From contig JBEBKH010000003.1 of NCBI GenBank assembly GCA_040079575.1, forward strand, positions 7,854 to 71,853: 64,000 nucleotides of DNA, read 5' to 3'. Shown one piece after another: positions 32,777-56,356 of the stretch. Within the stretch, counting starts at the first letter, position 1. Every line of letters begins with the position of its first letter. The notes under the pieces are model-generated. The model saw nothing but the letters and a program-made list of their open reading frames with translations, searched no databases and was not told the origin of the DNA. The DNA is from Chakrabartia sp. GTDB taxonomy: Bacteria; Pseudomonadota; Alphaproteobacteria; Sphingomonadales; Sphingomonadaceae. The translations under genes were made by a program, and so were the position numbers.

Positions 32777-32898
32777 ACGAACTGGAACTGCGCTGATTTC
32801 AGCATCGATCTTATGGAATCATAAGTTTTGATCATTTCACTACCGACACCAGAATAAACACCTGATTTGCGTTTGAAAAAATTATTTGGAGAAAGAAT

Positions 32899-36394: not shown

Positions 36395-36438
36395 TGTTTT
36401 GCGCGCAGCATTTTTCATTTTTGGTGTAAGGTAGGGAT

Positions 36439-39297
36439 ATGACATATCAGCCACAAAGTGATTTTGGAACACCCGCCAGTCGCGCAGAAGAAACTGTAAC
36501 CTGCACCATTGATGGTCGCGCTGTGACTGTCCCAGCCGGCACGAGCGTCATGCGTGCCGCCGCCGAACAAGGCACTTCGATCCCAAAGCTATGCGCAACC
36601 GATAGTGTGAAAAGCTTTGGCTCATGCCGCTTGTGCCTTGTCGAAATCGACGGACGACGGGGCACGCCTGCCAGCTGCACGACCCCCGTTGAGCCTGGTA
36701 TGGTCGTCCGCACACAAACGCCCCATCTTGCCAAATTGCGCAAGGGCGTGATGGAACTCTATATCTCAGACCATCCTCTCGATTGTTTGACGTGCGCCGC
36801 CAACGGCGACTGCGAATTGCAGGATCAGGCAGGGGCCGTTGGGTTGCGCGACGTACGTTATAACGTGCAGGCGACACATTTGGGCCAGGGAAAAGACCAT
36901 TCCAACCCCTATTTTGATTTTGATCCTTCGAAATGCATCGCTTGTTCGCGCTGTATCCGTGCGTGCGATGAAGTGCAGGGCACACTCGCGCTAACGATGG
37001 AAGGACGCGGCTGGGAGTCCAAAATTTCGGCGGGCCTCGCCAGTGACAATTTTTTAGGCAGCGAGTGCGTTTCCTGCGGCGCCTGCGTGCAGGCCTGTCC
37101 CACAGCGACGCTGGTCGAGAAAAAGGTCGTCGAGATTGGAACACCAGAGCGCAGCGTCGTAACAACATGTGCCTATTGCGGCGTTGGTTGCACCTTCCGC
37201 GCCGAAATGCGCGGCGAGCAGCTTGTCCGTATGGTGCCTTACAAAGAAGGCAAAGCCAATCGCGGTCACAGCTGCGTGAAGGGCCGTTTTGCTTGGGGCT
37301 ATGCGCAGCATCAAGAGCGCATCTTGAAACCCATGATCCGCACATCAATCAATGATCCGTGGCGCGAGGTCGAATGGGATGAAGCCTTTGCTTATACCGC
37401 GTCAGAGTTAAAACGGATCAGCGACACTTACGGCAAACATGCTCTTGGCGGGATCACGTCGAGCCGCTGCACCAATGAAGAAACCTTCCTTGTTCAAAAA
37501 TTGGTGCGCGCAGGCTTTGGTAACAACAATGTCGACACCTGCGCCCGTGTTTGCCACTCCCCCACCGGATACGGCCTCAAAACAACATTTGGGACAAGTG
37601 CTGGAACGCAGGATTTTGACTCGGTTGAGGATAGCGATGTCATCCTGATCATCGGGGCGAACCCGACCGACGGCCATCCAGTCTTTGCAAGCCGGATGAA
37701 ACGACGTTTGCGCGGCCAAGATGATAAACCTGGCGCAAAACTGATCGTGATCGATCCGCGCCGAACCGATATTGTCCGCTCCCCCCATATCGAAGCGCAG
37801 CATCATCTACCGCTGCGCCCCGGCACTAATGTTGCGGTCCTGACTGCAATGGCGCATGTCATCGTGACCGAAGGCCTTGCGGATGAAACGTTCGTAAAAG
37901 AACGCTGCGACTGGGACGAATATCTGCACTGGGCCGAATTTGTTTCGCTGCCCCGCAACAGCCCCGAAAACTTGCAACCTGTTACTTTGGTCGACGCTGA
38001 AGAGCTACGTGCCGCAGCACGGCTTTATGCAACGGGTGGCAATGGCGCAATCTATTACGGCCTTGGTGTGACGGAACACAGCCAAGGCAGTTCAACCGTT
38101 ATGGCGATTGCCAATCTTGCCATGGCGACAGGCAATATCGGGCGGCGCGGTGTCGGCGTGAACCCGCTGCGCGGCCAAAATAACGTTCAGGGCGCATGCG
38201 ATATGGGCAGCTTCCCCCATGAACTTTCCGGTTACCGCCACATCAGCGATGGCGATACGCGGCGCTTATTTGAAAATGATTGGGGCGTGCCACTCGACCC
38301 TGAGCCAGGCCTGCGCATCCCCAATATGCTGGATGCCGCTGTCGACGGGGTGTTCAAGGCGCTTTATTGTCAAGGCGAGGATATTCTCCAATCCGATCCC
38401 AACACCGCGCATGTCTCGGCGGGTCTCGCGGCGATGGAATGCGTGATCGTGCATGACCTCTTCCTCAATGAAACCGCAAATTATGCGCATATCTTCTTGC
38501 CGGGATCGACCTTCTTGGAAAAGAACGGCACTTTCACCAATGCAGAGCGCCGTATCCAGCCGGTGCGCAAGGTGATGACACCGTTGAACGGGCTGGAAGA
38601 TTGGGAAGTGACCCAGCGCCTTGCCCAAGCGATGGGGCTCAACTGGAATTACAGCCACCCCAGCGAAATCATGGACGAAATCGCCCGGCTGACGCCGACT
38701 TTTGCGGGCGTCTCATTTGACCGCCTTGATGAAATGGGCTCTCTCCAATGGCCTGTGAATGATGCGGCTCCGGATGGATCACCGATCATGCATAGTGACG
38801 GGTTTGTGCGCGGCAAGGGCAAGTTCGTCGTGACCGATTACATCCCAACCGATGAAAAAACCGGCCCACGCTTTCCGCTGCTTCTCACCACCGGTCGCAT
38901 ATTGTCGCATTACAATGTCGGCGCGCAAACACGGCGGACTGAAAATATCGCGTGGCATCCTGAAGATTTGCTCGAAATCCATCCCGTCGATGCCGAAGAT
39001 CGCGGGGTCAAAACGGGGGACTGGATTAAGCTCGCCAGCCGTGCGGGCGAAACGACCTTGCGCGCGACCGTCACCGACCGGGTTGCGCCGGGTGTCGTTT
39101 ACACAACATTCCACCATGCTGTGACGCAAGCCAATGTTGTGACGACAGACTATAGCGACTGGGCGACAAATTGCCCCGAATATAAGGTAACGGCGGTGCA
39201 AATCAGCCCGTCCAATGGTCCAACGGATTGGCAAGAAGATTATGAAGCCCTCTCCGAACGGTCGCGGCGGATTGTGGCAAGGGTTCCTGCCGCATGA
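36439..39297 (+). CDS. fdsA: Mo-containing formate dehydrogenase alpha subunit
   Basis: GSCRLC, HPLDC, CIACSRC, CVSCGACVQAC, CAYCGVGC Fe-S motifs; DTCARVCH Mo-ligand Cys-His; LRGQNNVQG. Confidence 0.97.
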   Translation: MTYQPQSDFGTPASRAEETVTCTIDGRAVTVPAGTSVMRAAAEQGTSIPKLCATDSVKSFGSCRLCLVEIDGRRGTPASCTTPVEPGMVVRTQTPHLAKLRKGVMELYISDHPLDCLTCAANGDCELQDQAGAVGLRDVRYNVQATHLGQGKDHSNPYFDFDPSKCIACSRCIRACDEVQGTLALTMEGRGWESKISAGLASDNFLGSECVSCGACVQACPTATLVEKKVVEIGTPERSVVTTCAYCGVGCTFRAEMRGEQLVRMVPYKEGKANRGHSCVKGRFAWGYAQHQERILKPMIRTSINDPWREVEWDEAFAYTASELKRISDTYGKHALGGITSSRCTNEETFLVQKLVRAGFGNNNVDTCARVCHSPTGYGLKTTFGTSAGTQDFDSVEDSDVILIIGANPTDGHPVFASRMKRRLRGQDDKPGAKLIVIDPRRTDIVRSPHIEAQHHLPLRPGTNVAVLTAMAHVIVTEGLADETFVKERCDWDEYLHWAEFVSLPRNSPENLQPVTLVDAEELRAAARLYATGGNGAIYYGLGVTEHSQGSSTVMAIANLAMATGNIGRRGVGVNPLRGQNNVQGACDMGSFPHELSGYRHISDGDTRRLFENDWGVPLDPEPGLRIPNMLDAAVDGVFKALYCQGEDILQSDPNTAHVSAGLAAMECVIVHDLFLNETANYAHIFLPGSTFLEKNGTFTNAERRIQPVRKVMTPLNGLEDWEVTQRLAQAMGLNWNYSHPSEIMDEIARLTPTFAGVSFDRLDEMGSLQWPVNDAAPDGSPIMHSDGFVRGKGKFVVTDYIPTDEKTGPRFPLLLTTGRILSHYNVGAQTRRTENIAWHPEDLLEIHPVDAEDRGVKTGDWIKLASRAGETTLRATVTDRVAPGVVYTTFHHAVTQANVVTTDYSDWATNCPEYKVTAVQISPSNGPTDWQEDYEALSERSRRIVARVPAA

Positions 39298-39506
39298 ACA
39301 CGGTCGAACGCCTTGTTTACATGGCCAATCAGATTGCCACCAACCTTGCAACTGACGAAAATCCCGTTGGTGCAATCGCAGAACATATCCAGCTGTTTTG
39401 GGATCCGCGGATGAAACGGCTCATTTTTGAAAACGGGATTGCAGGCCTGTCGCCAACGGCTGCTGCTGCCATTACCCAGCTTGTCGAAACCAATGGGTCA
39501 CGCTGA
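39294..39506 (+). CDS. fdsD: Formate dehydrogenase delta subunit
   Basis: LVYMANQIA...IAEHIQLFWDPRM. Confidence 0.92.
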   Translation: MNTVERLVYMANQIATNLATDENPVGAIAEHIQLFWDPRMKRLIFENGIAGLSPTAAAAITQLVETNGSR

Positions 39507-40296
39507 AACAGGGACAAAGCGGTTTCGCTTTTCGGTGCTCAAACCTGAAGGCGGCGTCAACGAAGACATCGAACGGGCGATCATCATCGAAACGCCGATC
39601 GCCATCGAATTTAACGGCATCGGCTATGCCGTGATGATGGCAACGCCCATTGATCTGGATGATTTTGCCATAGGGTTTTGCCTGTCCGAAAAATTGATCG
39701 ACCATGCAGATCAGATATGCGCCATTGATGCACATGAAGCCGCAACAGGATGGATTTTGCGGATCCAGTTGCCGCCCGAAAAGGCCGAAAAAATTATCGC
39801 CCGCGCGCGTCAGCGTGTCTCCGAAAGCAGCTGTGGCCTCTGCGGCATGGACAATCTCGACGAAGTGATGCGCCCTCTCCCTGCGATTACGGCACGGATT
39901 GATGTTGCCGACGCCGCAATTTTTTCAGCATTGAAGGCGTTACGTGCGCATCAGACTTTGAACGCGCTCACCGGCGCATCGCACGCCGCAGCATTTTGTG
40001 CACCGGACGGATCAATCCTGATGACCCGCGAAGATGTCGGTCGCCACAATGCCCTCGACAAAGTGATCGGTGCGCTTGCCACCGCTGGGATAGAGGCTTC
40101 AACCGGGTTTTTGCTGCTCACTGCGCGGTGCAGCTTTGAACTGGCACAGAAAGCGATTTTGGCCAATTGCCCGTTGCTCGTCACAATATCAGCAGCAACC
40201 GATTTGGCGATTACCACAGCGGCAAAATATGACCTGCGTTTGGTCAGTCTTGCTCGCCACGACGGCGTTCTGGTCGCAAAACCGCAAAACGGTTGA
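39493..40296 (+). CDS. fdhD: Formate dehydrogenase sulfurtransferase FdhD/FdsC
   Basis: MMATP, SSCGLCG, HAAA, EDVGRHNALDK. Confidence 0.93.
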   Translation: MGHAETGTKRFRFSVLKPEGGVNEDIERAIIIETPIAIEFNGIGYAVMMATPIDLDDFAIGFCLSEKLIDHADQICAIDAHEAATGWILRIQLPPEKAEKIIARARQRVSESSCGLCGMDNLDEVMRPLPAITARIDVADAAIFSALKALRAHQTLNALTGASHAAAFCAPDGSILMTREDVGRHNALDKVIGALATAGIEASTGFLLLTARCSFELAQKAILANCPLLVTISAATDLAITTAAKYDLRLVSLARHDGVLVAKPQNG

Positions 40297-41173
40297 TCAA
40301 CCAGCTGCGAAACATCGCAATTGCCGGATCGGCCAAATCATCGGCATGCAGTTTCAAATAATAACCATAGCCATCGTCAATCACCGCATCATAGGGCATC
40401 ACCAACCGACCATCGGCTATTTCCTGAGCAAACATGTCGACATCACCCAGAAATACGCCGCTGGCCGTCATTGCATATTGTGCCGCAGCAATGGCAGTAT
40501 CAAACGCCAGCCCCTCATGCGTCGGGACACTGAATCCGCTTTGTCGCAGGTAGGCGGTCCACAGCAAATCACGCGGTTCGCCCTCAAGTTTGAGATGCAA
40601 CAATTCCTGGCTTTTCAGAAAAGATTCCAACGATTGACCTGCGCATGCGGCGGCGGTTTGGGGTGCACATAAAGGGGCAACGCGCACCAGCCACAGCAAG
40701 TCTGTTACGCGGTCATCAACATTGGGCCGGTCATACGCGATGGCCATGTCAAAATCGGTCGCTGGCAATCCCGTGACATGCGCACTGGAAACGTCGATCC
40801 GAATTTCAGGATGCTCGACGCGAAAATCACGCAGCATCGGTAAAAACAATTGCTGCAACAAAGACGGTGGCACATGCAACCGCAGCGACCGGCTTATAAC
40901 ATCGTCATCACGAATTGCATTCATCGTCTGCTCAAGCCGATCAAGGCATTTGCTGACCACAGGTAGAAGTTCTTCGCCGGCTGCTGTCAGTGCCAATCGC
41001 GGCGCATCCCGGTCAAACAATTGCTTGCCAAGCAATTCTTCTAACCCGCCAACATGTCGGCTCATCGCACTTTGAGACACCGATAATGCTGATGCACCGC
41101 CGGTAAAACTCAGATGTTGGCCAACCGCTTCAAACGCCCGCAACGCATTCAGTGGCAGCCAACGGCGATTGAT
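40244..41173 (-). CDS. LysR family regulator (GcvA-like); start codon non-canonical or uncertain
   Basis: NRRWLPLNALRAFEAVGQHLSFTGGASALSVSQSAMSRHV; no ATG or GTG between the upstream in-frame stop (41210) and the HTH. Confidence 0.9.
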   Translation of the reverse strand: MNRRWLPLNALRAFEAVGQHLSFTGGASALSVSQSAMSRHVGGLEELLGKQLFDRDAPRLALTAAGEELLPVVSKCLDRLEQTMNAIRDDDVISRSLRLHVPPSLLQQLFLPMLRDFRVEHPEIRIDVSSAHVTGLPATDFDMAIAYDRPNVDDRVTDLLWLVRVAPLCAPQTAAACAGQSLESFLKSQELLHLKLEGEPRDLLWTAYLRQSGFSVPTHEGLAFDTAIAAAQYAMTASGVFLGDVDMFAQEIADGRLVMPYDAVIDDGYGYYLKLHADDLADPAIAMFRSWLINRFAVLRPERRRGEQD

Positions 41174-41334: not shown

Positions 41335-42543
41335 ATGGATATGAAGCGAATGGATGCGCTTTTTAAGGAGCGGCGTGCCAATCACACACTTCCGCAACCA
41401 CTCTATATCAGTCAGGACGCCTTTGATTTCGACATGACCGCAATCTACGGTCAAAGTTGGTTGATGGCGGGTATGGCATGTGAACTGCCCAAAGCAGGCA
41501 GCTATGTCGCCATGATGGTTGGCAAATGGCCGGTTATCATCACCCGCGACCGACACGGCGAAATCCGCGCCTTTCACAACAGTTGCCGACACCGTGGATC
41601 CATGATCTGCGCACCCGGCAGTGGCACGGCACCAAAACTTGTTTGCCCCTATCACCGCTGGACCTATGATCTCGATGGGGCACTGTTTGCCGCAGGGCGG
41701 ATGCCCGATGATTTTGAAAAGAGCGAACATGGGTTGAAACCAGTGGCGATTGAATGCCGCGCCGGTGCGATCTTCATCTGCCTTTCAGAAAACCCACCCC
41801 CCTTCGATGACTTCGGTGACACACTGGCCGCTTTTTCTGCACCCCACCATTTCGAGGACGCGAAATTGGCGCACCAAAGTGTGCTCGTTGAACATGCCAA
41901 TTGGAAATTGGTGATGGAAAATGCCCGTGAATGCTATCACTGCGCAACGGGACATCCAGAGCTTTCAAAAACATTCCCCGTTGGTATGTCGAAGCATTTT
42001 GATGCCCATGAGGACGCCCGCGCCAGTGCCTTTGCCGCGACAATGGATGGCCTGGAATTTCCCCATACCCCCATCGAGGGTGATTGGTGGCAGGTGGCCC
42101 GTTTTGCCCTCAATGAAGGCTGCGTGTCCATTTCAGCCGATGGCCAGCCACTGGTTAAAAAGTTGATGTGCTCCGCAAATGGCGGAGACATTGGTTCGAT
42201 GCGCTGGGCAATTGACCCACATCTTTTTGCCCATGCCACTGCTGACCATGTTTTCATGTTTAGCGCAATGCCGGTGGGTCCAACCGAAACCCATGTTTAC
42301 AGCAAATGGTTTGTGCACAAAGATGCGGTTGAGGGCGTGGATTATGATGTCTCAGCATTGACCGATTTGTGGACGAAGACCAACGCGCAGGACAAAGAAC
42401 TGGCCGAAAACAACCATGCCGGTGTCAACAGCCCCGGCTATACCCCAGGGCCATATTCTCAAGATGCAGAAATGCTCGCCCAACGTTTTACCGACTGGTA
42501 TTGCGACAAGGCGCGCGCCTATATTGATGCCCATGTCGACTGA
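41335..42543 (+). CDS. Rieske non-heme iron oxygenase alpha subunit (GbcA/Stc2-like), copy 2
   Basis: CRHRG...CPYHRW; ENARECYHC...GHPE; QD ligand; AGAGGGG RBS before MDMKR. Confidence 0.93.
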   Translation: MDMKRMDALFKERRANHTLPQPLYISQDAFDFDMTAIYGQSWLMAGMACELPKAGSYVAMMVGKWPVIITRDRHGEIRAFHNSCRHRGSMICAPGSGTAPKLVCPYHRWTYDLDGALFAAGRMPDDFEKSEHGLKPVAIECRAGAIFICLSENPPPFDDFGDTLAAFSAPHHFEDAKLAHQSVLVEHANWKLVMENARECYHCATGHPELSKTFPVGMSKHFDAHEDARASAFAATMDGLEFPHTPIEGDWWQVARFALNEGCVSISADGQPLVKKLMCSANGGDIGSMRWAIDPHLFAHATADHVFMFSAMPVGPTETHVYSKWFVHKDAVEGVDYDVSALTDLWTKTNAQDKELAENNHAGVNSPGYTPGPYSQDAEMLAQRFTDWYCDKARAYIDAHVD

Positions 42544-43792
42544 TTATACAAAGGGCATGCGCCCAGAAACTCTGGCCGTTTCTTATGGCTATGAACCCGA
42601 AATGGGCATGGGATCGGTTAAACCTCCCATCTTCATGACCTCAACCTTCGTCTATCCTTCAGCGCAGCACGCCAAGGATGTGCACGAAGCCTATTTTGAT
42701 GGCAGCGGGCCGTTGGTTGGCCAAACCAATCATATCTATGCGCGGTTGGGCCATCCCGGTTTGGATTTTCTAGAAAAACGCCTTGCGGCGATTGACGGCG
42801 CAGAAGATGCCGTGGCCTTTTGCAGCGGCATGGCCGCGCATTCCAGCATAGCATTGGCCTATGTGCGCAGCGGCGACAGCGTCATCCACGGACGGCCGAT
42901 TTATGGCGGTGTCGATATGTTGTATAACAGCATCATGCCCCAATTCGGGTCACATGCTGCAGCCTATCTTGACGGTACAAACGAAAATGATGTGCGCGCT
43001 GCGGCCAAGGCGGCGATGGCAAAAGGGCCGTTAAAACTTATTATTGCTGAAACCCCTGCCAATCCGACAGCTGCCATCGTCGATCTTGCTCTGATGGTGC
43101 GGATTGCGAATGAGGTTGGCGCAGAGCAAGGGCATCGCCCCCTCGTTGTTGTTGACAACACCTTGCTTGGCCCCTTTGCCCAGCGCCCAATCGAACACGG
43201 CGTCGATTTGTGCATGACATCGCTCACCAAATATTGCGGCGGGCACAGCGACCTGTTGGCAGGCGGGATCAGCGGACAAAAAGATCTGATCGAACATTTG
43301 CGCATGTTACGGACAAGTTGGGGCAATCATCTTGATCCCTACACGGCCTGGTTGGTCCTGCGGTCTTTAGAATCGGTTGCGGTTCGGACCGAACGAGCAA
43401 TGAGCAATGCGCGCGGTGTTGCAGAATTTCTGCGCGATCATCCTAAAGTGGCAGGTGTAACCTATCTTGGTTTTCTTGAACCCGGCTCACCACAACGCAC
43501 TGTCTATGATCGCCAATGTAAAGCTGCGGGTTCAACCTTCTCTTTCCATCTTCACGGCGGAGAGGCCGAAGCGTTCCGCATGCTCGACGCGTTGCAATGG
43601 ATGAAATTGGCGGTCAGCCTTGGCGGCTCCGAAACGCTAATCTGCCATTCGGCGAGCACGACACATTATGCCGTGGCCCCCGAACAAAGGCTGGCAGGCG
43701 GCATTACCGATGGCACGGTCCGGCTGTCGGTTGGGCTAGAACATGTCGATGATCTGATCGCGGACCTCAATCAAGCATTGGAAGCGGTATAA
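42533..43792 (+). CDS. Cys/Met metabolism PLP enzyme (methionine gamma-lyase/cystathionine gamma-synthase family)
   Basis: KPPIFMTSTF, YARLGHP, SGMAA, IYGG, ETPANP, VDNT, SLTKYCGGHSD (PLP Lys), AVSLGGSETL, RLSVGLE. Confidence 0.92.
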   Translation: MSTDYTKGMRPETLAVSYGYEPEMGMGSVKPPIFMTSTFVYPSAQHAKDVHEAYFDGSGPLVGQTNHIYARLGHPGLDFLEKRLAAIDGAEDAVAFCSGMAAHSSIALAYVRSGDSVIHGRPIYGGVDMLYNSIMPQFGSHAAAYLDGTNENDVRAAAKAAMAKGPLKLIIAETPANPTAAIVDLALMVRIANEVGAEQGHRPLVVVDNTLLGPFAQRPIEHGVDLCMTSLTKYCGGHSDLLAGGISGQKDLIEHLRMLRTSWGNHLDPYTAWLVLRSLESVAVRTERAMSNARGVAEFLRDHPKVAGVTYLGFLEPGSPQRTVYDRQCKAAGSTFSFHLHGGEAEAFRMLDALQWMKLAVSLGGSETLICHSASTTHYAVAPEQRLAGGITDGTVRLSVGLEHVDDLIADLNQALEAV

Positions 43793-45255
43793 TGGAGTTG
43801 AATTTTTCTGGTACGGATGTGTGCGCGATCAATGGTACGCGTAGCCCCGCGGACTCACACTATGATGTCGTTGTGATTGGCGCTGGTACCAGCGGTACGG
43901 CCGCCGCAATCGAGGCTGCCAAAACCGGCAGCGTGGTTCTGTTGATCGATGAAAATCCGGTTTCGGGCGCGCTGATGGGCAATGATGTGCCGCTCTATTT
44001 CGGGGGACGGATGACCGCCGCGACACAGAATAGTGAACGCATGCTGGAAGCCATTTTCATGAACATGCCACATTTGGAACCGGCAATGGAGGCCGGGGTT
44101 GAGGTGCTGCTCGGAACGACAGCCTGGGGCGTTTATCGCAATGGTCCCGGCGTCGCGAGTTTGCCAGAACAGGTCGTGGGTCTCGCCAATGCAGAACGTT
44201 CCTGGCTGGTCGGTTTTAGCCAACTGGTGCTGGCCACAGGCGCGCGCGATTTGGCGATGGCTTTCCCTGGGTGGAACCAGCCGGGCGTGATGGGTGCTGC
44301 TGCCCTCCAAATGCTTCTTAGCCGCTATGACGCCTTCGCTGGGCGGCGCGTGCTTATGCTCGGCTCGCATGATCTGGCGCTTGAAACCGCACTTATCGCG
44401 CATGATCGTGGGATCGACGTGACAGGCTTGGTCGAAGTGCGCAGTAGCCCGCAAGGAAGCCCTGCGTTGATTGCCAAGGTTGAAGCCGCTGGGATCAGCA
44501 TTCGTTGCGGTCAGGCGATTGTGTCTGCCAAAGGCGGCATCGACGGCGTGGAAAGTGCAACACTTTCAACCGGTGAAGAGATTGCTTGCGATACGATTTG
44601 TGTCGCAATTGGCCTTATTCCCTCGATTGAACTGGTCGACGCGATGCACGGAGCCCGTTCCTTAAGTGCCGCGCGTGGTGGCTATATCCCCACAGGTGAA
44701 GCAAGTGTTTCTGCCGTTGGCGACTGTGCAGGCCTGCCCGATACCGGTTTTGACCATATCGCATACCGTATGGAATGGATGCGTGCCCTGTCCGCCGCTT
44801 GCGCCGATGACACGATCATCTGTCAGTGCGAAGAGGTGACGCGCGCAGACCTGATCGGGGTTCAGCCGCCACATTATCTCGCGCGGCCTGCACCAATGTG
44901 TGCGCGTTCCCTTAAGACGTTGCTTGATGATGGCCCCGCCAATCCGGACCAGATTAAACGCCTTACCCGTGCGGGCATGGGGGTGTGTCAGGGACGGCGC
45001 TGCCGCGATCAAGTGGCAATGTTACTTGCCATTGAAGCAGATCAGCCATTCGGCACCATTCCCCTTGCCACGCACAGGGCGCCTGTCCGGCCATTGCCGC
45101 TCAAAATTATGGCCGACTGGCAGGAAAGCGAAGCGATGACAGCCGCATGGGATGTCTGGTTCGGTATTCCAACACAGTGGGTGCCCGTGCAAGATATTGG
45201 CACAGTCCATGAGGATGAACACCGCGAGATGCTCTATACGGGGATGTACACATGA
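43792..45255 (+). CDS. FAD/NAD-dependent oxidoreductase with C-terminal BFD-like 2Fe-2S domain (OoxA/HcnB/proline dehydrogenase alpha-like)
   Basis: IGAGTSG, LATGA, PGWNQPGVM, ICQCEEVT, IKRLTRAGMGVCQGRRC. Confidence 0.85.
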   Translation: MELNFSGTDVCAINGTRSPADSHYDVVVIGAGTSGTAAAIEAAKTGSVVLLIDENPVSGALMGNDVPLYFGGRMTAATQNSERMLEAIFMNMPHLEPAMEAGVEVLLGTTAWGVYRNGPGVASLPEQVVGLANAERSWLVGFSQLVLATGARDLAMAFPGWNQPGVMGAAALQMLLSRYDAFAGRRVLMLGSHDLALETALIAHDRGIDVTGLVEVRSSPQGSPALIAKVEAAGISIRCGQAIVSAKGGIDGVESATLSTGEEIACDTICVAIGLIPSIELVDAMHGARSLSAARGGYIPTGEASVSAVGDCAGLPDTGFDHIAYRMEWMRALSAACADDTIICQCEEVTRADLIGVQPPHYLARPAPMCARSLKTLLDDGPANPDQIKRLTRAGMGVCQGRRCRDQVAMLLAIEADQPFGTIPLATHRAPVRPLPLKIMADWQESEAMTAAWDVWFGIPTQWVPVQDIGTVHEDEHREMLYTGMYT

Positions 45256-46388
45256 GTGGCTCAGATGTTGTCATCGTCGGCGGTGGTGTCACGGGACTTA
45301 GCGCCGCATGGTGGCTGGCGCGTTCTGGGGTCAAGGTCACTGTGATCGACAAGGGCATTGTCGGTTGGGAAGCATCGGGCCGCAACGGCGGCGGCGCATC
45401 GCATTATCAAAGCCCCTTGTTCGATGAAGAACACCGGCTTTGGCCGCAAATGGATGAACTGCTCGGCTACCCGACCGAGCACCAGAAAGATCGCATTCTG
45501 ATTGCGATGACCGAACGTCAGTGGGAACAATATCGCTTTGTTGCGCAGCGCCACAACCGGTTGGGCCACCCGGTCGATATTCTCGACGTGAAACAGGTAC
45601 AGGAGGCCGTGCCGCTGGCGGGTGACACATGTTTTGGCGGCGTTCACTACCGTTTTGGGGGGCATGCCAATCCGCAACGCAGTGTGCAGGCCTATGCTTG
45701 GGCATTCCAAGACCTTGGCGGCACGATCATTCAGCATTGTCCCGTGACCGGTTTTGAAATGACTGGCAGCAAGGTTACTGGTGTTAAAACCACCACGGCA
45801 ACCCACGGCTGTGACGCGGTGGTGGTCGCGGCCGGGCCACAAACATCGCGGCTGATGGCACAACTGGGCGTTGATGTTCCACTGGCCGCTGCGCGCGCTG
45901 AAATGATCATTACCGAACCAGCGCCGATGATGCCCATTGGCGGCGTCGACGGCCACAAGCTTTATGGCCGTCAGACGATGCGTGGAAACCTGGCCTACGG
46001 CGGCGGTCCGCACGAATGGATCGACATTGACGAGACTGGCCCCGTCGCGCGCCCGTCAACGCCGTTGATGCGCAACCTGGCCAGCCGCCTTGCAGAATTG
46101 CTACCCAAAGCGGCGCATTTGAACATTATTCGCAGCTGGGCTGGGGTGATTGAAAACTCCCCTGATGGCCGCCCAATTATCGACCGGCTGACCAGTCCGG
46201 ACAATGTTGTGGTCGCGTCAATGTCTGGCGTGGGTTTTGGATTATCCCCCGCATCTGGGCATGCAATCCGCGATCTGGTGATGGACGGCAGATGCTCCTT
46301 CGCAGACATCAGCATATTGGGCCTCTCACGCTTTGCAGGACTTGAAAGCGACTGGCGTGAAAAACGCGGGTGGATGCCGATTTCATGA
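45252..46388 (+). CDS. DAO-family FAD oxidoreductase (OoxB/HcnC/proline dehydrogenase beta-like)
   Basis: GGGVTG, EASGRNGG, RSWAG, PDGRPII, GFGLSPA. Confidence 0.88.
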   Translation: MSGSDVVIVGGGVTGLSAAWWLARSGVKVTVIDKGIVGWEASGRNGGGASHYQSPLFDEEHRLWPQMDELLGYPTEHQKDRILIAMTERQWEQYRFVAQRHNRLGHPVDILDVKQVQEAVPLAGDTCFGGVHYRFGGHANPQRSVQAYAWAFQDLGGTIIQHCPVTGFEMTGSKVTGVKTTTATHGCDAVVVAAGPQTSRLMAQLGVDVPLAAARAEMIITEPAPMMPIGGVDGHKLYGRQTMRGNLAYGGGPHEWIDIDETGPVARPSTPLMRNLASRLAELLPKAAHLNIIRSWAGVIENSPDGRPIIDRLTSPDNVVVASMSGVGFGLSPASGHAIRDLVMDGRCSFADISILGLSRFAGLESDWREKRGWMPIS

Positions 46389-47641
46389 GCCGCTATTCGG
46401 CGCTTTCTCTGCTGCGCGGTGCGTTGAACGGGCAAAAGCATTGGCAACCCGCGTGGCGTGACCCTGAACCAAAGGCCAATTACGATATCATCATCATTGG
46501 CGGTGGCGGACACGGTTTGGCAACGGCCTATTACCTCGCCAAGGTGCACGGCCTGCGCAATATTGCTGTGCTTGAAAAGGGCTGGATTGGCGGCGGAAAC
46601 ACTGGACGCAATACGACAATTGTGCGTTCCAACTACCGGTTGAAGCCGCTGCATGACCTGTTCGAATTCGGACTGAAAATGTGGGAGAATTTGAGCAACG
46701 AACTCAATTACAACGTCATGTTTTCCCCCCGCGGCGCGATGTTCCTCGGTCATAGTGATGCGGACATGACCATGCTTGCACAGCGCGGCGATGCCATGCG
46801 CTGTGACGGAATCGATGCTGATCTGATGACGCGCGATCAGGTCGCAAAACTTGAACCCCTGATCGACATGTCCCGCGACGCGCGCTTCCCGATTGAAGGC
46901 GGCCTGATCCAACGGCGCGGCGGCACTGCGCGTCATGATGCTGTTGCCTGGGGCTATGCGCGCGGGGCTGACAGTCTGGGTGTCGATATCATTCAGAAAT
47001 GTGAAGTCACAGGCTTTGTGCGTGACGGTGACGCTGTGATCGGCGTTGAAACGACGCGCGGGCGGATCGGTGCTGGGCGCATTGGCATTTGCGTTGCGGG
47101 CAATAGTGGCCATGTCGCGGGCCTTGCGGGCCTGAAACTGCCCATCGAATCGCAGACATTACAAGCGATGGTGACAGAGGGCGTAAAACCGATGATCAAC
47201 AGCGTGATCATGTCGCAATCTTTGCACTGTTACATCAGTCAATCGGACAAGGGCGGCATCGTATTTGGTGGCGATCCCGATAATTGGCCAAGTTATGCGC
47301 AGCGCGGGAACCCGATGGTGATGGAAGGTGCTGTGGCTCAGGGGCTGGCGCTCGTCCCCGCGCTTTCACGATTGCGGATGGTAAGGACGTGGAGCGGAGT
47401 GACCGATATGAGCTGTGACGGTGCGCCGATCATTGGCGAAACGCCCGTCAAAAATCTCTATCTCAATGGCGGCTGGTGCTACGGCGGGTTCAAAGCGACG
47501 CCAGCTTCTGGCTGGACCTATGCACATACGCTGGCAACTGGAAAACCACACCTCCTCAACGCGCCCTTCGCGCTAGACCGATTCAGCAGCGGCGCGACGA
47601 TTGATGAAACCGGCACCGGCCCGATGCCGAACAGCCGGTGA
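46385..47641 (+). CDS. soxB: Heterotetrameric sarcosine oxidase-type beta subunit, copy 1
   Basis: GGGGHGLATAYYL, GNTGRNTTIVRSNY, ARHDAVAW, GGFKATP. Confidence 0.92.
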   Translation: MSRYSALSLLRGALNGQKHWQPAWRDPEPKANYDIIIIGGGGHGLATAYYLAKVHGLRNIAVLEKGWIGGGNTGRNTTIVRSNYRLKPLHDLFEFGLKMWENLSNELNYNVMFSPRGAMFLGHSDADMTMLAQRGDAMRCDGIDADLMTRDQVAKLEPLIDMSRDARFPIEGGLIQRRGGTARHDAVAWGYARGADSLGVDIIQKCEVTGFVRDGDAVIGVETTRGRIGAGRIGICVAGNSGHVAGLAGLKLPIESQTLQAMVTEGVKPMINSVIMSQSLHCYISQSDKGGIVFGGDPDNWPSYAQRGNPMVMEGAVAQGLALVPALSRLRMVRTWSGVTDMSCDGAPIIGETPVKNLYLNGGWCYGGFKATPASGWTYAHTLATGKPHLLNAPFALDRFSSGATIDETGTGPMPNSR

Positions 47642-47657
47642 AGGGTTTTACACTGAC

Positions 47658-47921
47658 ATGATGCAGATCACATGCCCTCATTGCGGTCCACGCGCACAAA
47701 GCGAATTCGTTTTTGAACGTACCCTCGATTCAGTCGTGACGATTGAGGCTTTGCCCAAAGATGCGATGACGACACTTTTTACCCGCAACAACCCTCGTGG
47801 GATGGATGAGGAAATCTGGCGGCATACATTTGGGTGCCGCGCCTGGATGGTGATAACACGCCATAGGGTATCGCATGAAATCAGCAACGTCCGCGCGGTT
47901 GGACCGGAGGTCCTGCCATGA
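47658..47921 (+). CDS. soxD: Sarcosine oxidase delta subunit, copy 1
   Basis: ITCPHCG...RNNPRG...WRHTFGC zinc ligands. Confidence 0.9.
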   Translation: MMQITCPHCGPRAQSEFVFERTLDSVVTIEALPKDAMTTLFTRNNPRGMDEEIWRHTFGCRAWMVITRHRVSHEISNVRAVGPEVLP

Positions 47922-50686
47922 ACGGCCCTTCGCGCGACAACCACGGCGCAACCATCTCCTTCACCTTCGACGGAAAAAAACTCACAGCGCGGCAGGGCGA
48001 TACATTGGCCGCAGCACTGCTTGCCAACGGCATCGGCCTCGTCGGACGCAGTTTCAAATATCACCGGCCACGCGGGATCATGACAGCGGGTGTCGAAGAA
48101 CCCAACGCCCTTGTTACCGTTGGTGAAGGCGGACGCAGCGAACCCAATAGCCGCGCAACCGACGTGTTCGTTTATGAAGGCTTGGTCGCCAAAAGCCAGA
48201 ACCGCTGGCCAAATCTGCGCTTCGACGCTGGCGCGGTTTTTGGTTTTGCTGCACCCATTTTATCCGCCGGATTTTATTACAAAACCTTTTTCGGTTCGGC
48301 CAAGCGCTGGATATTTTACGAATATTTCATCCGCAAAGCGGCCGGGTTGGGCAACGCGCCGACGCAGGCCGACCCCGACCGTTTCAGCCAACGTGCGGCA
48401 TTTTGCGATCTGCTGGTGGTTGGCGCGGGACCAGCCGGACTGTCGGCAGCGCGCGACGCAGCTGAAGCAGGGCAAAGTGTTATTTTGGTTGAACAGGACC
48501 AAATCTTGGGGGCTTCCCTGATCCGCGATCCGCAGAATTTGGACGCAGCCTGGATCAACGATACCGGACAAAGCATCCGCAAAGCTGGTGGTCGTATCCT
48601 GACGCGGACAACGGCATCCGGATATTGGGAACATGACCTCGTCACATTGACGCAGCGCATTGCAGAACCCGGCCAAGCGCCTGCAAATGGTGTCGCACAG
48701 CGGCTTTGGCATGTGCGTGCGGGCCGCGTCATCCTTGCGACTGGTTCTATCGAACGTCCCATTGCATTTGCCCATAATGACCGCCCGGGGGTGATGCTGT
48801 CTCAAGCTGCGCGCACCTATGTGCAGCGTTTTGGTGTGTTACCAGGAAAGCGTGTGGTGATCGCAACAAACAATGATGATGCCTATAAAACGGCACAAGC
48901 ATTGAATGATGCCGGAGCAGACATCGTTGCAATCCTTGACGCGCGGCCTGCCCCAGCGGGTCAGGAGTGCGGCTTTCCTGTGTACAATGATGCCGTCCCG
49001 CACTCAACCAAAGGCGCTCGTCATTGCTTGAAAAGCGTCAGCGCGTTGGTCGATGGTTCAACCAAAAGCTGGAAAGCAGATTTGCTTGCCGTGTCGGGTG
49101 GCTTCACACCTGTCGTGCACCTCCACATGCAGGCGGGCGGTACACTTGACTGGAAAGAGGCGGCACAAGCCTTTGTTCCCGCCATGTCGCGCCAAAATGT
49201 GATAACCATCGGCGGCGCAAACAATCCCGAACCCGTTTTCACCCTGACACCTGTTTCGTCCCCAAAGAAGAGCTTCATCGATTTCCAGAATGATGTGACG
49301 CTGGCTGATGTCGATCTCGCTTGGGCAGAAGGTTATCGTTCGGTCGAACATTTGAAGCGTTACACCACGCTTGGGATGGCGACCGATCAGGGTAAACTCA
49401 GCAATATGGCAGCCCTTGGTCGTTTGGCTGAAAAGCAGGGCTTGGCCATTCCCGAGGCGGGTCTCACGACGTTCCGTCCGCCCTACACACCTGTCACAAT
49501 GGGGTTACTTGCGGGAGCGGGAGCGAAGGATGGCGGCGCACATGTCCGGCGTTTGGCACTTTATGATGTACATCAGGCAAAGAACCCGATCTGGCAACCA
49601 CTCGGTTATTGGTTTCGCCCACGTGCTTACCCGTTAACCGGTGAAACATTGGCGCAGGCAGCACTGCGTGAAGCGAGGGCCGTGCGGACCAGCGTCGGGA
49701 TGACTGACGTATCAACGCTTGCCAAGTTTGAAGTTAGCGGGCCAGATGCTGCAGCTTTTCTAGAAATCATCTGCGCGACCAGCGTCAGCAAGCTCGCGGT
49801 TGGGCGTGGACGTTACACCTTCATGCTCCGCGAAGATGGATTTGTGTTTGATGATGGCACGGTTTGGCGGTTGGATGAAAACCGCTATTTACTGACCAGT
49901 TCCACCGGCGGCGCAGACCGGATGGCGACACATATTTCCTATGTCCGACAATATTTATGCCCGCATTTGCGCGTTTCGGCGGTCAATGTGCAGGAACATT
50001 ATGCGGGAATTGCGATTGCGGGGCCAAACGCAAAAGCAGTGCTCACTACGCTGATCGGTGAAGCGCCGCCGCGCCATATGTCGACTGTCCCGGCTTCCAT
50101 CGCAGACATACCAGTGATCATCCTCGCCGCCAGCTACAGCGGTGAACGCGCGTTTGAAATCTATGTCGATGCGCAACACGCCGCTAAGGTATGGGCTGCC
50201 TCCGAAACCCAAGTCTCTGCGCAAGGCGGCTGCCTTTACGGAATGGAGGCGATGGAATTTCTCCGTATCGAAAAGGGCCATTTGGTTGTCGGGGGTGAAG
50301 TGGATGGGCGGATGACGCCGCATGATCTGGCGCTTGATAAAATGCTCAACAAATCCGGCGGCTATATTGGCGCGTCTGGGCTTTCACGACCGGCATTGTC
50401 GACGTCGGGGCGTCGTCAATTGATCGGGATGGAGGCGATTGAGGGCATGATCCCCGAAGGCGCAATGCTCATTACACGCGGCGGTGAATCCCCAGAAGGC
50501 CACGTCAGCGCCGCCGCGTTTCGCATTATAGAAGGCGGGGCGATTGCACTGGGGCAATTGGTCGACGGGTTCAGCCGCCACGGCGAAGAATTGATCGCGT
50601 CATCACCCACACGCGGACAAAGCGCGCGCGTCCGCATTGTCGCTCCGCATTTTTATGACACAGCAGGGGAACGCTACCGTGACTGA
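47918..50686 (+). CDS. soxA: Sarcosine oxidase alpha subunit, copy 1
   Basis: RSFKYHRPRG, GAGPAG, DFQNDV, KRYTTLGMATDQGK, TFRPPY; GcvT-like C-terminal half. Confidence 0.93.
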   Translation: MNGPSRDNHGATISFTFDGKKLTARQGDTLAAALLANGIGLVGRSFKYHRPRGIMTAGVEEPNALVTVGEGGRSEPNSRATDVFVYEGLVAKSQNRWPNLRFDAGAVFGFAAPILSAGFYYKTFFGSAKRWIFYEYFIRKAAGLGNAPTQADPDRFSQRAAFCDLLVVGAGPAGLSAARDAAEAGQSVILVEQDQILGASLIRDPQNLDAAWINDTGQSIRKAGGRILTRTTASGYWEHDLVTLTQRIAEPGQAPANGVAQRLWHVRAGRVILATGSIERPIAFAHNDRPGVMLSQAARTYVQRFGVLPGKRVVIATNNDDAYKTAQALNDAGADIVAILDARPAPAGQECGFPVYNDAVPHSTKGARHCLKSVSALVDGSTKSWKADLLAVSGGFTPVVHLHMQAGGTLDWKEAAQAFVPAMSRQNVITIGGANNPEPVFTLTPVSSPKKSFIDFQNDVTLADVDLAWAEGYRSVEHLKRYTTLGMATDQGKLSNMAALGRLAEKQGLAIPEAGLTTFRPPYTPVTMGLLAGAGAKDGGAHVRRLALYDVHQAKNPIWQPLGYWFRPRAYPLTGETLAQAALREARAVRTSVGMTDVSTLAKFEVSGPDAAAFLEIICATSVSKLAVGRGRYTFMLREDGFVFDDGTVWRLDENRYLLTSSTGGADRMATHISYVRQYLCPHLRVSAVNVQEHYAGIAIAGPNAKAVLTTLIGEAPPRHMSTVPASIADIPVIILAASYSGERAFEIYVDAQHAAKVWAASETQVSAQGGCLYGMEAMEFLRIEKGHLVVGGEVDGRMTPHDLALDKMLNKSGGYIGASGLSRPALSTSGRRQLIGMEAIEGMIPEGAMLITRGGESPEGHVSAAAFRIIEGGAIALGQLVDGFSRHGEELIASSPTRGQSARVRIVAPHFYDTAGERYRD

Positions 50687-51170
50687 CGTGACGATTACGA
50701 TCCTCCCCGCTGCGCTGCTCCATGCCTTTGAAATTTGGAGTCATCCAGCCGTCGCCGCCAAACGCTTCAAGGCCGCCACCGGTTTTGCGCTTCCGCCAAT
50801 GGGCCGTTCAGCAGGTAGCGATGCATTGCGCCTGATCCGGTTTGAACCCACCGTCTGGCTGGTCGAAGGTGATGCGTCGCCCTTACCGGCGATTTTGGAA
50901 GAAGACGGTGCACTCACCGCGATCGGCGGCGGCGTGGTGCGCGTGCGATTATCGGGTGACGGCTGGCGCACGCTGTTGATGGAGGGCGGCGTGTTTGATG
51001 CCGAAAGTCCGGATTTCGCTCCGGGATGCAGCGCTGCAACCATCATTGATCACGTTGCTGTGCGGCTGCACGTGGTCAGTGATGACATGTGTGACGCCTA
51101 TGTTCCGCGCAGCTTTAGCACAGGGTTGGTGCATTTTTGGGAACAGGCGACACGGAATCTGGCCGCTTAA
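50679..51170 (+). CDS. soxG: Sarcosine oxidase gamma subunit, copy 1 (divergent)
   Basis: Position after soxA (GTG overlap); GcvT-N-like fold features, VPRSFSTGLVHFW. Confidence 0.75.
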   Translation: MTDVTITILPAALLHAFEIWSHPAVAAKRFKAATGFALPPMGRSAGSDALRLIRFEPTVWLVEGDASPLPAILEEDGALTAIGGGVVRVRLSGDGWRTLLMEGGVFDAESPDFAPGCSAATIIDHVAVRLHVVSDDMCDAYVPRSFSTGLVHFWEQATRNLAA

Positions 51171-52321: not shown

Positions 52322-53629
52322 TCACTCTTTGGCCTGCGAATGATTGAGTATCATGCCCTGCGCATGGCGTCGCTGGAAACCTTTCCATAAGGTTACGCCC
52401 TCTCCGCTAGGGCTATATGCGCCCCAGCCGGTGCCTGCGGGGGCGTTCCAAATGCCATCGTCCGAATGCTCTACCTGCACATTGAGATAAGCCCTTTGGT
52501 CCAACTGCCCGCGCATGTTCAGCCCCAAAAACGCGGTGATAAAATGTAAGTTGATCGCATTGATACGGTCTTGTCGCCAGATCGGGTCTTCAAACCAATC
52601 AATATCCCAAACGGACCCGCGCATTTCGGGCGGCGCGGGATTGAGTGCCACAGAATGGCCAGCTTGCTGATATGTGAGCAAATAACGGTCAGCATGAACG
52701 GCCCCCTTAAACACAGCGAGTGCACCGCTTTTATAATCAACCACCGGATCCTTATCCCCCTGAATAAGGAGCAATGGGGCGGTGACCGCGGCGAGCCCTT
52801 CATCGCCCCAGGCGCTTTTGGGAAAACCGCCGCCCGGGGCAAGTGCAACGATTGCCCTGACGCCGGGAACAATGATTTCGCTCGCACCCGCCATCCCACG
52901 CGCATATTTTTTAAGCTGCCCACCCGCGACCAGCGCCATATTTGGTCCGGCGGGATCAAGGCTTGCGCCGCCAGAGGTTAGGACGCCGTATCCCCCTTGC
53001 GAATAACCGATCAGCGCAACATTATCAGGATCAATCTGCTTGCCTAGGCTCTTGCGAAGCTGCGCCGTGACAAAAGCAATGTCACGGGGGCGATTGAAAT
53101 TTGGGGCAGCGCGCTGCGCAGCTGTCACCACATAGGGGTTGGGGTCATTATGGTGAATGGCCGCCACGACATAGCCTTTTGACGCAAGGTTTTCAGTAAG
53201 CCATGTCATTGATGCCGGTGCGTTACTGTAACCGTGGGAGACGACGACCAATGGATGCCCGCGGCCAGCCGCTTGCGCATTCATAACCGCCAACCCCGGC
53301 ACAGTGAATGCAACGGGTAGTCGCGGCGGCTCCCCCCAAAAAGCCGCGCGATAGGTGACACGCTTGGCACTTTTTTTGACGATAGCCGGATACCAGATAT
53401 CAACCACAACTTCTCTGTCATGAACTAGAAGATGTCCTGTTGCCGGATCACCGTTTTGCACATCAACTTGTGCGCGGTGCAGCAAAGTCATCGTCTTAAA
53501 ACCAACGCCAGCCGGACCAAGGCTTGCCAATTCAGGCGCGTCTACACCCGGGACGCTTGGCAAGCCATTATGGGCTTGCAAAGGACCTGTCGCGATCAGG
53601 GTCATGCAGAGCGCGGTCATATATTTCAT
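52322..53629 (-). CDS. Secreted alpha/beta hydrolase (dienelactone hydrolase/PAF-AH-like)
   Basis: Signal peptide; VSHGY oxyanion hole, GYSQG nucleophile elbow, GDKD, AGH. Confidence 0.85.
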   Translation of the reverse strand: MKYMTALCMTLIATGPLQAHNGLPSVPGVDAPELASLGPAGVGFKTMTLLHRAQVDVQNGDPATGHLLVHDREVVVDIWYPAIVKKSAKRVTYRAAFWGEPPRLPVAFTVPGLAVMNAQAAGRGHPLVVVSHGYSNAPASMTWLTENLASKGYVVAAIHHNDPNPYVVTAAQRAAPNFNRPRDIAFVTAQLRKSLGKQIDPDNVALIGYSQGGYGVLTSGGASLDPAGPNMALVAGGQLKKYARGMAGASEIIVPGVRAIVALAPGGGFPKSAWGDEGLAAVTAPLLLIQGDKDPVVDYKSGALAVFKGAVHADRYLLTYQQAGHSVALNPAPPEMRGSVWDIDWFEDPIWRQDRINAINLHFITAFLGLNMRGQLDQRAYLNVQVEHSDDGIWNAPAGTGWGAYSPSGEGVTLWKGFQRRHAQGMILNHSQAKE

Positions 53630-56324: not shown

Positions 56325-56356
56325 ATCGCTTCCCCCCAATGGCCATTGTCGATAGT

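Follow-up and report, generated by a model that had tools for sequence, protein, structure and literature searches.

A widespread operon joining putative N-demethylases to a PLP enzyme, with a proposed role in the catabolism of a non-glycine amino-acid betaine

Why should a pyridoxal phosphate (PLP) enzyme of the Cys/Met-metabolism family be encoded in the midst of three different predicted N-demethylating systems? We addressed this question for a 64,000-nt stretch of a Chakrabartia sp. genome (assembly GCA_040079575.1, contig JBEBKH010000003.1, positions 7,854–71,853; the whole stretch is referred to as the window). Its host, a Sphingomonadales bacterium from fresh water, stands close to Sphingorhabdus. 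Between positions 41335 and 51170, the window contains eight plus-strand genes, designated Module B, that encode a Rieske non-haem-iron oxygenase, the PLP enzyme, a pair of flavoproteins resembling OoxA and OoxB, and the subunits of a divergent SoxBDAG oxidase (Table 1). We propose, with a probability of roughly 0.6, that Module B serves, under LysR control, the catabolism of a betaine that is taken up from outside and derives by N-alpha-methylation from an alpha-amino acid other than glycine.

The open reading frame (ORF) listing and the translation of the window recover all eight genes; the start of the SoxG-like gene is uncertain (TTG at 50637, ATG at 50655 or GTG at 50679). Read from the sequence, the genes from Rieske to SoxB successively overlap by 11 nt, 1 nt and twice 4 nt (ATGA in both cases); a gap of 16 nt follows, and two further overlaps, of 4 nt (ATGA) and about 8 nt, lead up to the SoxG-like gene. 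The eight-gene overlapping operon and the protein families described in an initial annotation of this DNA are thus borne out, with genes that overlap or lie at most 16 nt apart. A promoter and terminator scan gave no signal above shuffled sequence, and this includes terminator signals inside the operon. The GcvA-like LysR gene that diverges from the operon encodes its probable regulator.

We scanned about 186,000 species genomes, one per species, with two peptide patterns of the PLP enzyme (FMTSTFVY and CMTSLTKY, containing three clade-specific residues) and obtained 271 confirmed relatives, which gives a rough count of carrier species. Loci were examined for the best 80 of the 271 relatives, all from Sphingomonadales and with PLP-enzyme identities of 84–97%. 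All eight genes are colinear on one strand in 52 of the 80, that is, in each of the 52 sufficiently long loci, and the remaining 28 lack genes only at the side where the available sequence ends. The arrangement is therefore conserved far beyond chance. Identity across the sphingomonad loci is highest for the PLP enzyme (84–89%) and SoxB (85–94%) and lowest for the Rieske protein (67–81%) and SoxG (63–79%); the divergent LysR gene is present in 48 of the 52 full loci. Named cultured carriers of the module include Sphingorhabdus contaminans KCTC 32445, S. profundilacus IMCC26285, Chakrabartia godavariana PRB40, Novosphingobium capsulatum HAMBI_0103 and Hartmannibacter diazotrophicus.

Distant instances were found by a homologue search with the PLP protein of lineage G042, which yielded a far broader set, and ten lineages were inspected: G042 itself, Hartmannibacter diazotrophicus, Rhizobium oryzicola, a Phenylobacterium metagenome-assembled genome (MAG), a Novosphingobium capsulatum plasmid and five metagenome or MAG contigs. 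They belong to Hyphomicrobiales, Caulobacterales and Sphingomonadales or are unassigned metagenome contigs. The PLP–OoxA–OoxB unit is present in all ten, and a Rieske gene with a divergent LysR gene lies upstream in nine, the contig of the tenth (L149) ending just upstream of the PLP gene. Wherever the sequence covers the junction, the PLP gene lies between its Rieske and OoxA neighbours in translational coupling. Five lineages (L037, L137, L139, L140 and L141) encode a betaine ABC transporter of the OpuAC type across the LysR gene, and the binding protein of L137 matches the betaine/proline binding protein 7YLE at 243 bits. Downstream of OoxB, two of the ten lineages carry SoxBDAG, as in the window, and five carry a monomeric flavoprotein whose best match is N-methyl-L-tryptophan oxidase or monomeric sarcosine oxidase (MTOX/MSOX; NF008425, 170–176 bits). 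Such a swap would be expected if a secondary N-methyl amino acid is demethylated at this step. That the same slot is filled by two unrelated types of enzyme for such amino acids is, of all the comparative arguments, the strongest for a primary alpha-amino acid as the end of the pathway.

The PLP enzyme scores 515.2 bits against the model of the PRK07049 'cystathionine gamma-synthase family protein' (NF005455), above the cut-off of 504, and 340.7 bits against the methionine gamma-lyase (MGL) model TIGR01328, whose cut-off of 549.7 is not reached. Its closest structures, 5IJG and 7SWH, both belong to the PRK07049 family and are functionally uncharacterised; we found no characterised member of this family. 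Aligned to MGL, the enzyme keeps the catalytic set K233 (the PLP lysine), D208, Y124, R397, Y69 and R71, and it displays the S-x-T-K lysine, preceding Asp, stacking Tyr and carboxylate-binding Arg of the fold-type I Cys/Met enzymes. Y124-G125-G126 aligns with Y113-G114-residue 115 of Citrobacter MGL, MGL Cys116 is replaced by Gly126, the MGL pair Lys240/Asp241 is replaced by Arg260/Thr261, and two family-specific insertions are present relative to methionine and cystathionine gamma-lyases. The initial annotation had taken YGG in place of YGC as consistent with a non-methionine substrate. The sequence detail is correct, but the argument drawn from it is weak, since 5IJG and 7SWH share YGG, which alone says merely that the enzyme is not a classical MGL. 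The enzyme of the operon is no housekeeping methionine lyase under independent regulation.

We constructed a tree of 28 PRK07049-family proteins, nine operon-linked and 19 others. The nine operon-linked proteins form their own clade with 100/100 support and a long stem; the other 19 are 43–54% identical to this clade and occur in mutually unrelated gene contexts. Ten residues (Y41, A47, H51, L72, D128, C227, T229, L242, L256 and Y379) never vary within the operon clade and are essentially missing from the other proteins. T229 lies four residues before the PLP lysine, where the other clade has Tyr and MGL has His, and Y379 lies two residues after a conserved active-site Thr, where both the other clade and MGL have Ser; judged from the alignment, the T229/Y379 swap looks like a tyrosine relocated within the presumed substrate pocket. 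As judged from the tree and these residues, the operon enzyme is a specialised paralogue. One of the 19 others is encoded by a second PRK07049 gene of the genome (contig C48, 11320–12546; L056, 9304–10599), 44% identical and from a clade that is not operon-linked, which comes after genes for a DASS-family Na+/sulfate or dicarboxylate symporter and a YfiH-like protein in a housekeeping-like context. A MetB/MetZ-like gene is also found elsewhere in the genome. We considered and rejected a general tie of the whole PRK07049 family to demethylases, given the 19 members in unrelated and mutually different contexts.

The first gene product is a Rieske oxygenase of the Stc2/GbcA type, an alpha-only oxygenase of about 400 aa in which both the Rieske motif CxH..CxxH (CRHRGSMICAPGSGTAPKLVCPYH at residue 84) and the mononuclear-iron motif ExxHxxxxH (ECYHCATGH at residue 199) are intact. 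Its closest PDB structures are 3N0Q, 3VCA (Stc2) and 4QUP, each matched over the full length at ~360 bits. Against the GbcA model NF058607 it scores 436 bits, below the cut-off of 670, as do the Rieske proteins of two further modules of the window, Module A (284 bits) and Module C (400 bits). These three oxygenases of the Stc2/GbcA type in the genome are encoded at 10731–11984 (Module A), 41335–42543 (Module B) and 61238–62440 (Module C). The Module B protein is 51–58% identical to the Rieske proteins of other modules versus 34–42% to those of Modules A and C.

The OoxA-like alpha subunit comprises an FAD/NAD fold, a BFD-like 2Fe-2S domain and a SoxA A3 domain; the GcvT folate domain is absent, and the translation shows the cysteines CQC...CQGRRC. 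It matches TIGR01372 partially (132 bits) and the PDB entries of SoxA and 1Y56_A weakly. The OoxB-like subunit is 62% identical to OoxB of G042; in the PDB it matches 1Y56_B best (109 bits), which is the beta chain of the L-proline dehydrogenase of Pyrococcus, and SoxB next. No curated OoxAB model is matched by the pair, which is assigned by its architecture and weak PDH1/SoxAB similarity. The locus L149 (1387–4020) encodes a shorter OoxA-like protein (385 aa), and an ORF of 87 aa stands between it and OoxB; the 2Fe-2S/A3 part at the C-terminus of OoxA may have been split off there.

The subsequent four genes follow the subunit order B-D-A-G and include a folate (GcvT) domain in the alpha subunit. 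Against the curated models, SoxB scores 658 (TIGR01373, cut-off 529), and the other three subunits remain below their cut-offs: SoxA with 1007 vs 1164 (TIGR01372), SoxD with 71 vs 116 (TIGR01374) and SoxG with 44 vs 144 (TIGR01375). Compared with the SoxBDAG of Module C, the identities are 51% for SoxB, 40% for SoxA and 33% for SoxD, and SoxG gives no match.

These components can be combined into a general scheme that we regard as likely, in which three N-demethylations are followed by the PLP enzyme. We infer the order of the steps, the demethylase role of the OoxAB-like pair and the lyase chemistry. The Rieske oxygenase would (i) remove the first methyl group and convert a quaternary into a tertiary amine, with release of formaldehyde. 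The OoxAB-like flavoprotein would (ii) remove the second methyl group and yield a secondary amine; the absence of a folate domain and a nearby FrmA gene suggest that this methyl group leaves as free formaldehyde. The divergent SoxBDAG would (iii) pass the third methyl group to tetrahydrofolate, a step that would be performed by the MTOX/MSOX-like oxidase elsewhere. The freed alpha-amine would (iv) form a Schiff base with the PLP enzyme, which would eliminate (or replace) the gamma or beta substituent and give a 2-oxo acid and ammonia, while the one-carbon units would exit via the adjacent PurU, FrmA and formate dehydrogenase. The logic by which the initial annotation had linked a PLP gamma-lyase to three demethylases holds in its architecture and chemistry, supported by translational coupling, the swap at the third step and betaine transport; the specific substrate that it named stays a guess, if the one that fits best.

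Table 1. Positions, strands and family assignments of Module B and neighbouring features in the window.
Feature	Coordinates	Strand	Families, domains and scores
Rieske non-haem-iron oxygenase, Stc2/GbcA N-demethylase type	41335..42543	+	PF00355, PF00848
Cys/Met-metabolism PLP enzyme, 419 aa, PRK07049 family	42533..43792	+	PF01053, NF005455
OoxA-like alpha subunit	43792..45255	+	Pyr_redox_2, BFD-like 2Fe-2S domain, SO_alpha_A3 domain
OoxB-like beta subunit, DAO-family flavoprotein	45252..46388	+	PF01266 225 bits
SoxB-family beta subunit, divergent heterotetrameric N-methyl-amino-acid oxidase	46385..47641	+	TIGR01373 658 bits
SoxD-family delta subunit	47658..47921	+	PF04267 69 bits; TIGR01374 71 bits
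SoxA-family alpha subunit with GcvT folate domain	47918..50686	+	PF13510, PF17806, PF01571, PF08669
SoxG-like gamma subunit	about 50679..51170	+	TIGR01375 44 bits only
LysR-family regulator, GcvA-like, divergent from operon	40244..41143	-	PF00126, PF03466; NF008352 172 bits
One-carbon sink: PurU, glutathione-dependent formaldehyde dehydrogenase (FrmA), NAD-linked formate dehydrogenase subunits, MobA, FdhD	31833..40296	+	Pfam/NCBIfam
Secreted alpha/beta-hydrolase, PAF-AH / PETase / cutinase-like serine esterase	52322..53629	-	PF12740, PF03403, PF12146
Second LysR regulator	53626..54618	-	overlaps hydrolase start by 4 nt
BCCT-family betaine, choline or carnitine transporter	54729..56414	-	NF047988 444 vs 650; TIGR00842 403 vs 407.55
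Candidate accessory operon: TonB-dependent receptor, TPR-sulfotransferase-like, MFS transporter, BADH-like aldehyde dehydrogenase, enolase-superfamily acid-sugar-dehydratase-like, choline-dehydrogenase-like GMC oxidase	21253..31580	-	Pfam, NCBIfam
HIBADH / tartronate-semialdehyde-reductase-like dehydrogenase	19265..20230	+	Pfam/NCBIfam
LysR	20262..21185		beside HIBADH-like gene

The one-carbon genes of Table 1 lie upstream of the operon in the sphingomonad loci as well. In three sister Sphingorhabdus loci (L004, L005 and L006), the fdsB-like and mobA-like genes enclose a gene for a homocysteine S-methyltransferase (PF02574, 288 aa) that is absent from the window. Betaine-type uptake is encoded beside the catabolic genes, by the BCCT transporter in the window and by OpuAC systems in other lineages; the BCCT transporter could serve Module B, Module C or both. 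Module C, ~6 kb downstream, is an ordinary glycine-betaine line composed of the Rieske oxygenase, a protein similar to dimethylglycine dehydrogenase (DMGDH) and SoxBDAG, whose SoxB (698.4 vs 529.45) and SoxA (1411.3 vs 1164) exceed their cut-offs. The Rieske protein of Module A (10731–16846) is 67% identical to a second Rieske protein in the Phenylobacterium locus (L138, 1–2534), which adjoins an 812-aa DMGDH-like protein; this likeness, together with the neighbour, indicates that Module A is a separate conserved unit travelling with Module B. On the plus strand, the stretch separating the operon from the hydrolase gene convergent to it contains a 133-aa ORF (51450–51851) that matches nothing in Pfam or NCBIfam.

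The translation of this hydrolase shows a signal peptide (MKYMTALCMTLIATGPLQA, followed by HN) and a GYSQGG elbow; a PDB search returned only weak cutinase- or PETase-like matches, which are uninformative on the substrate. Of the 52 full sphingomonad loci, 35 contain the hydrolase gene, and homologues with 45–49% identity adjoin the LysR gene of the module in L138, L147 and L148. The secreted hydrolase is a probable accessory enzyme that would free the betaine from an ester conjugate. On the N. capsulatum plasmid (L143, 16100–18037), a gene for a CocE/NonD (S15 peptidase-type) hydrolase directly follows OoxB on the same strand, and genes for TonB-dependent receptors flank the module on both sides.

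Further homologues of window genes accompany the core elsewhere. In L147 and L148, the esterase gene comes after genes for a TPR-sulfotransferase-like protein and a TonB-dependent receptor, joined in L148 by one for an MFS transporter; their homologues at 25485–31580 of the window show identities of 55% (MFS), 44–52% (TPR-sulfotransferase) and 25–27% (TonB-dependent receptor). In the Phenylobacterium MAG (L138), a LysR gene (72%) and a HIBADH-like gene (76–77%) homologous to window positions 19265–21185 lie beside the esterase gene and the core, and the locus also contains an aldehyde dehydrogenase 40% identical to that at 24053–25519. A second contig of this MAG holds the TPR-sulfotransferase, MFS, enolase-superfamily (84%) and GMC oxidase (68%) genes in the order of the window; the 84% identity of the enolase-family protein between the window sphingomonad and the Phenylobacterium MAG suggests horizontal transfer. 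An SDR gene also lies beside the accessory operon, with the LysR and HIBADH-like genes (region 18338–21185). Because accessory homologues accompany the core in other lineages, the minus-strand operon at 21.2–31.6 kb and Module B probably form one system. The esterase and the alcohol- and aldehyde-oxidising genes found with the core indicate that the natural substrate in sphingomonads and caulobacters is probably an esterified conjugate with an oxidisable alcohol or polyol part. Such a conjugate fits a deacylated betaine lipid without proving one, and the accessory genes could instead serve choline esters and the glycine-betaine line.

Which betaine would enter this pathway? Among known natural betaines, an N-trimethyl amino acid with a gamma leaving group would most readily be homoserine betaine, or its glyceryl ether in the lipid diacylglyceryl-trimethylhomoserine (DGTS). 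We tentatively name homoserine betaine, either free or released from, or still bearing, the DGTS glyceryl ether, as the best candidate substrate, an assignment that remains doubtful. DGTS has been reported in green algae and nonflowering plants (PMC8752610). A search for BtaA (PF11899), indicative of self-made DGTS, gave no match in the genome or in G042, a weak negative given that control genomes were equally silent; for what it is worth, it suggests that the substrate is probably external to the cell. In our literature searches we found no pathway for the catabolism of homoserine betaine (trimethylhomoserine), no breakdown route for DGTS and no pathway with this gene combination, in agreement with the view of the initial annotation that no characterised pathway has this gene set.

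We consider it rather unlikely that Module B forms the cytoplasmic end of a more extensive system for consuming DGTS or its glyceryl-trimethylhomoserine head group. In such a route, the TonB-dependent receptor would take up the lipid or lyso-lipid, the secreted PAF-AH-like esterase would strip the acyl chains, and the MFS or BCCT transporter would import the head group. The glyceryl ether, otherwise inert, could then be broken either (a) by PLP-dependent gamma-elimination after three N-demethylations or (b) by oxidation of the glycerol end through the GMC oxidase and the aldehyde dehydrogenase, after which the enolase-superfamily enzyme would beta-eliminate the alkoxide.

Several observations weigh against the proposed betaine pathway or its favoured substrate. 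No OoxAB-type enzyme is known to us as a demethylase; the known members oxidise opines, proline or glycine. As a member of the uncharacterised PRK07049 family, the PLP enzyme may eliminate or replace, and may act at the gamma or the beta position. Three of the ten lineages (L142, L143 and L147) have no third demethylase next to the core. Free homoserine can be used by ThrB and ThrC, so that no special lyase is needed, and hydroxide and alkoxide are poor leaving groups. Homoserine betaine is mainly marine in the retrieved literature, whereas the carriers come from fresh water and soil, and the public reads most similar to the window sequence derive from DNA metagenomes only (drinking water, sediment and fresh water). 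A gap in the electron supply of the three Rieske oxygenases of the genome adds to this list. The window contains no FNR-type or ferredoxin-type reductase partner for the Module B Rieske oxygenase, and no GbcB-like reductase was found in the 98%-complete genome with the G042 protein and PF00175 as queries; the sole NAD_binding_1 protein of the genome is a 1079-aa P450-BM3-like fusion (contig C32). In the orthologous modules L037 and L141, a gene for a GbcB-like reductase separates the Rieske gene from the PLP gene, as a ferredoxin gene does in L137. Given the lack of a GbcB-type reductase, the OoxAB dehydrogenase step may, as a side possibility, feed electrons to the Rieske oxygenase.

Four rival explanations were weighed against the catabolism of a non-glycine betaine. 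Every demethylase family of Module B is also one of glycine betaine catabolism, and some sister loci hold the PF02574 homocysteine S-methyltransferase gene in the adjacent formate dehydrogenase cluster. Module B might on these grounds be a second line for glycine betaine, dimethylglycine and sarcosine, with the PLP enzyme in sulfur or methyl-group housekeeping, for example on methionine or homocysteine from a betaine-homocysteine methyltransferase that would remove the first methyl group. We assign this explanation a low probability, as a canonical Rieske–DMGDH–SoxBDAG line already exists 6 kb away and all lineages, even those that lack a methyltransferase nearby, have the PLP gene placed after the Rieske and before the OoxA gene. 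The PLP enzyme moreover belongs to a specialised clade without the MGL-type Cys, and the genome keeps another PRK07049 paralogue and the MetB/MetZ-like gene elsewhere. A similarly low probability attaches to a variant of our own proposal, gamma-replacement salvage, in which the demethylated O-substituted homoserine would react with sulfide or cysteine to homocysteine or cystathionine and feed methionine synthesis. The catabolic setting, with one-carbon oxidation genes and LysR control, and the absence of sulfide-supplying genes nearby speak against salvage, even though the models of O-succinylhomoserine sulfhydrylase and cystathionine gamma-synthase score nearly as high as the lyase models and the NCBI family name is 'cystathionine gamma-synthase family'.

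A true opine-type OoxAB would split a secondary-amine conjugate of the opine-like or aminocarboxypropyl kind, for example a nicotianamine-like molecule or an opine of methionine or homoserine; the gamma-substituted amino acid set free would be degraded by the PLP enzyme, and a methylated part would be left to the Rieske and Sox enzymes. The domain make-up of the pair, without a folate domain, is indeed closer to the opine oxidase, HcnBC and PDH1 class than to SoxA/SoxB, and several hosts are rhizosphere bacteria. The chance of this explanation is nevertheless very small, considering transporters of the quaternary-ammonium type (OpuAC or BCCT), a Rieske protein of the Stc2/GbcA type, an MTOX-like or SoxBDAG oxidase for N-methyl amino acids beside the core in most lineages, and sphingomonad hosts that are planktonic freshwater bacteria. 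Least probable in our estimate is a sulfonium or sulfur betaine, S-methylmethionine or N-methylated methionine, from which a methionine-type gamma-lyase would release dimethyl sulfide or methanethiol. This alternative had been named in the initial annotation; methionine gamma-lyases are the best curated models after PRK07049, and BCCT and OpuAC systems also carry sulfonium compounds. However, the MGL models stay far under their cut-offs, Cys116 and Lys240/Asp241 of MGL are replaced by Gly126 and Arg260/Thr261, and the only genes for handling thiols or sulfide in the ten contexts are a CysIJ pair of L142, which is probably unrelated. The amine of S-methylmethionine is, in addition, already free, so that three demethylases would have no role.

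Betaines are major osmolytes and also serve as sources of nitrogen and carbon. In Trichodesmium, homoserine betaine is an abundant solute, and DGTS replaces phospholipids under phosphorus stress in algae, fungi and many bacteria; if the DGTS reading were true, the larger system would represent the first catabolic route for this lipid class. Resolving the pathway would (i) give a function to the uncharacterised PRK07049 family and (ii) show whether OoxAB-type flavoproteins act as N,N-dimethyl-amino-acid demethylases. The question is directly testable, as the module is present in named cultured strains.

Of the known systems, glycine betaine catabolism in Pseudomonas, Chromohalobacter and Alphaproteobacteria (GbcAB/BmoAB, DgcAB or dimethylglycine dehydrogenase, SoxBDAG) shares with Module B the Rieske start, two flavoprotein demethylations, a SoxBDAG with folate domain, PurU and formaldehyde/formate oxidation genes nearby, and betaine transporters. 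Module B differs in its middle step, which is an OoxAB-type pair rather than DgcAB or DMGDH, in its Rieske, SoxA, SoxD and SoxG proteins, which score below the cut-offs, and in the absence of a GbcB-type reductase. It also inserts a Cys/Met-family PLP enzyme after the Rieske gene, for which glycine has no need. Stachydrine and hydroxyproline betaine catabolism in Sinorhizobium and Paracoccus (Stc2 or HpbB1C1 with a flavin N-methylproline demethylase) likewise demethylates a non-glycine amino-acid betaine stepwise, and Stc2 (3VCA, 360 bits) is among the nearest Rieske structures. Those substrates, however, bear two methyl groups, end as proline or hydroxyproline and need no PLP gamma-family enzyme, whereas Module B has up to three demethylases and the PLP enzyme.

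A mechanistic precedent for breaking a gamma C–O bond is provided by the canavanine gamma-lyase of Pseudomonas canavaninivorans and Rhizobiales, a Cys/Met-family PLP enzyme that cleaves an O-substituted homoserine at C-gamma within a dedicated catabolic cluster and whose closest structure is given as MGL 5DX5 (PMC9533460). Orthology of the Module B enzyme to it was rejected, since 5DX5, not 5IJG, is the nearest structure of the canavanine enzyme; the two fall into different subfamilies (5DX5 vs 5IJG/7SWH), and the canavanine pathway works without N-demethylases and yields homoserine. With methionine and cystathionine gamma-lyases, the Module B enzyme shares the fold, PLP lysine, Asp, stacking Tyr, carboxylate Arg and the Tyr/Arg of the partner subunit, but it has Gly for the MGL Cys and Arg-Thr for Lys-Asp, and Tyr379 and Thr229 are private to its clade. 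Cystathionine gamma-lyase also dehydrates homoserine to 2-oxobutyrate. The class of OoxAB (octopine/nopaline oxidase), HcnBC and archaeal PDH1 resembles the flavoprotein pair in combining a DAO-type beta subunit with an alpha subunit of FAD/NAD fold and 2Fe-2S domain that lacks a folate domain. The similarity is low (109 bits), and we know of no member of this class that acts as an N,N-dimethyl-amino-acid demethylase; the setting of Module B is betaine demethylation, not opine, proline or cyanide metabolism. Module B is a widespread, uncharacterised variation on betaine demethylation.

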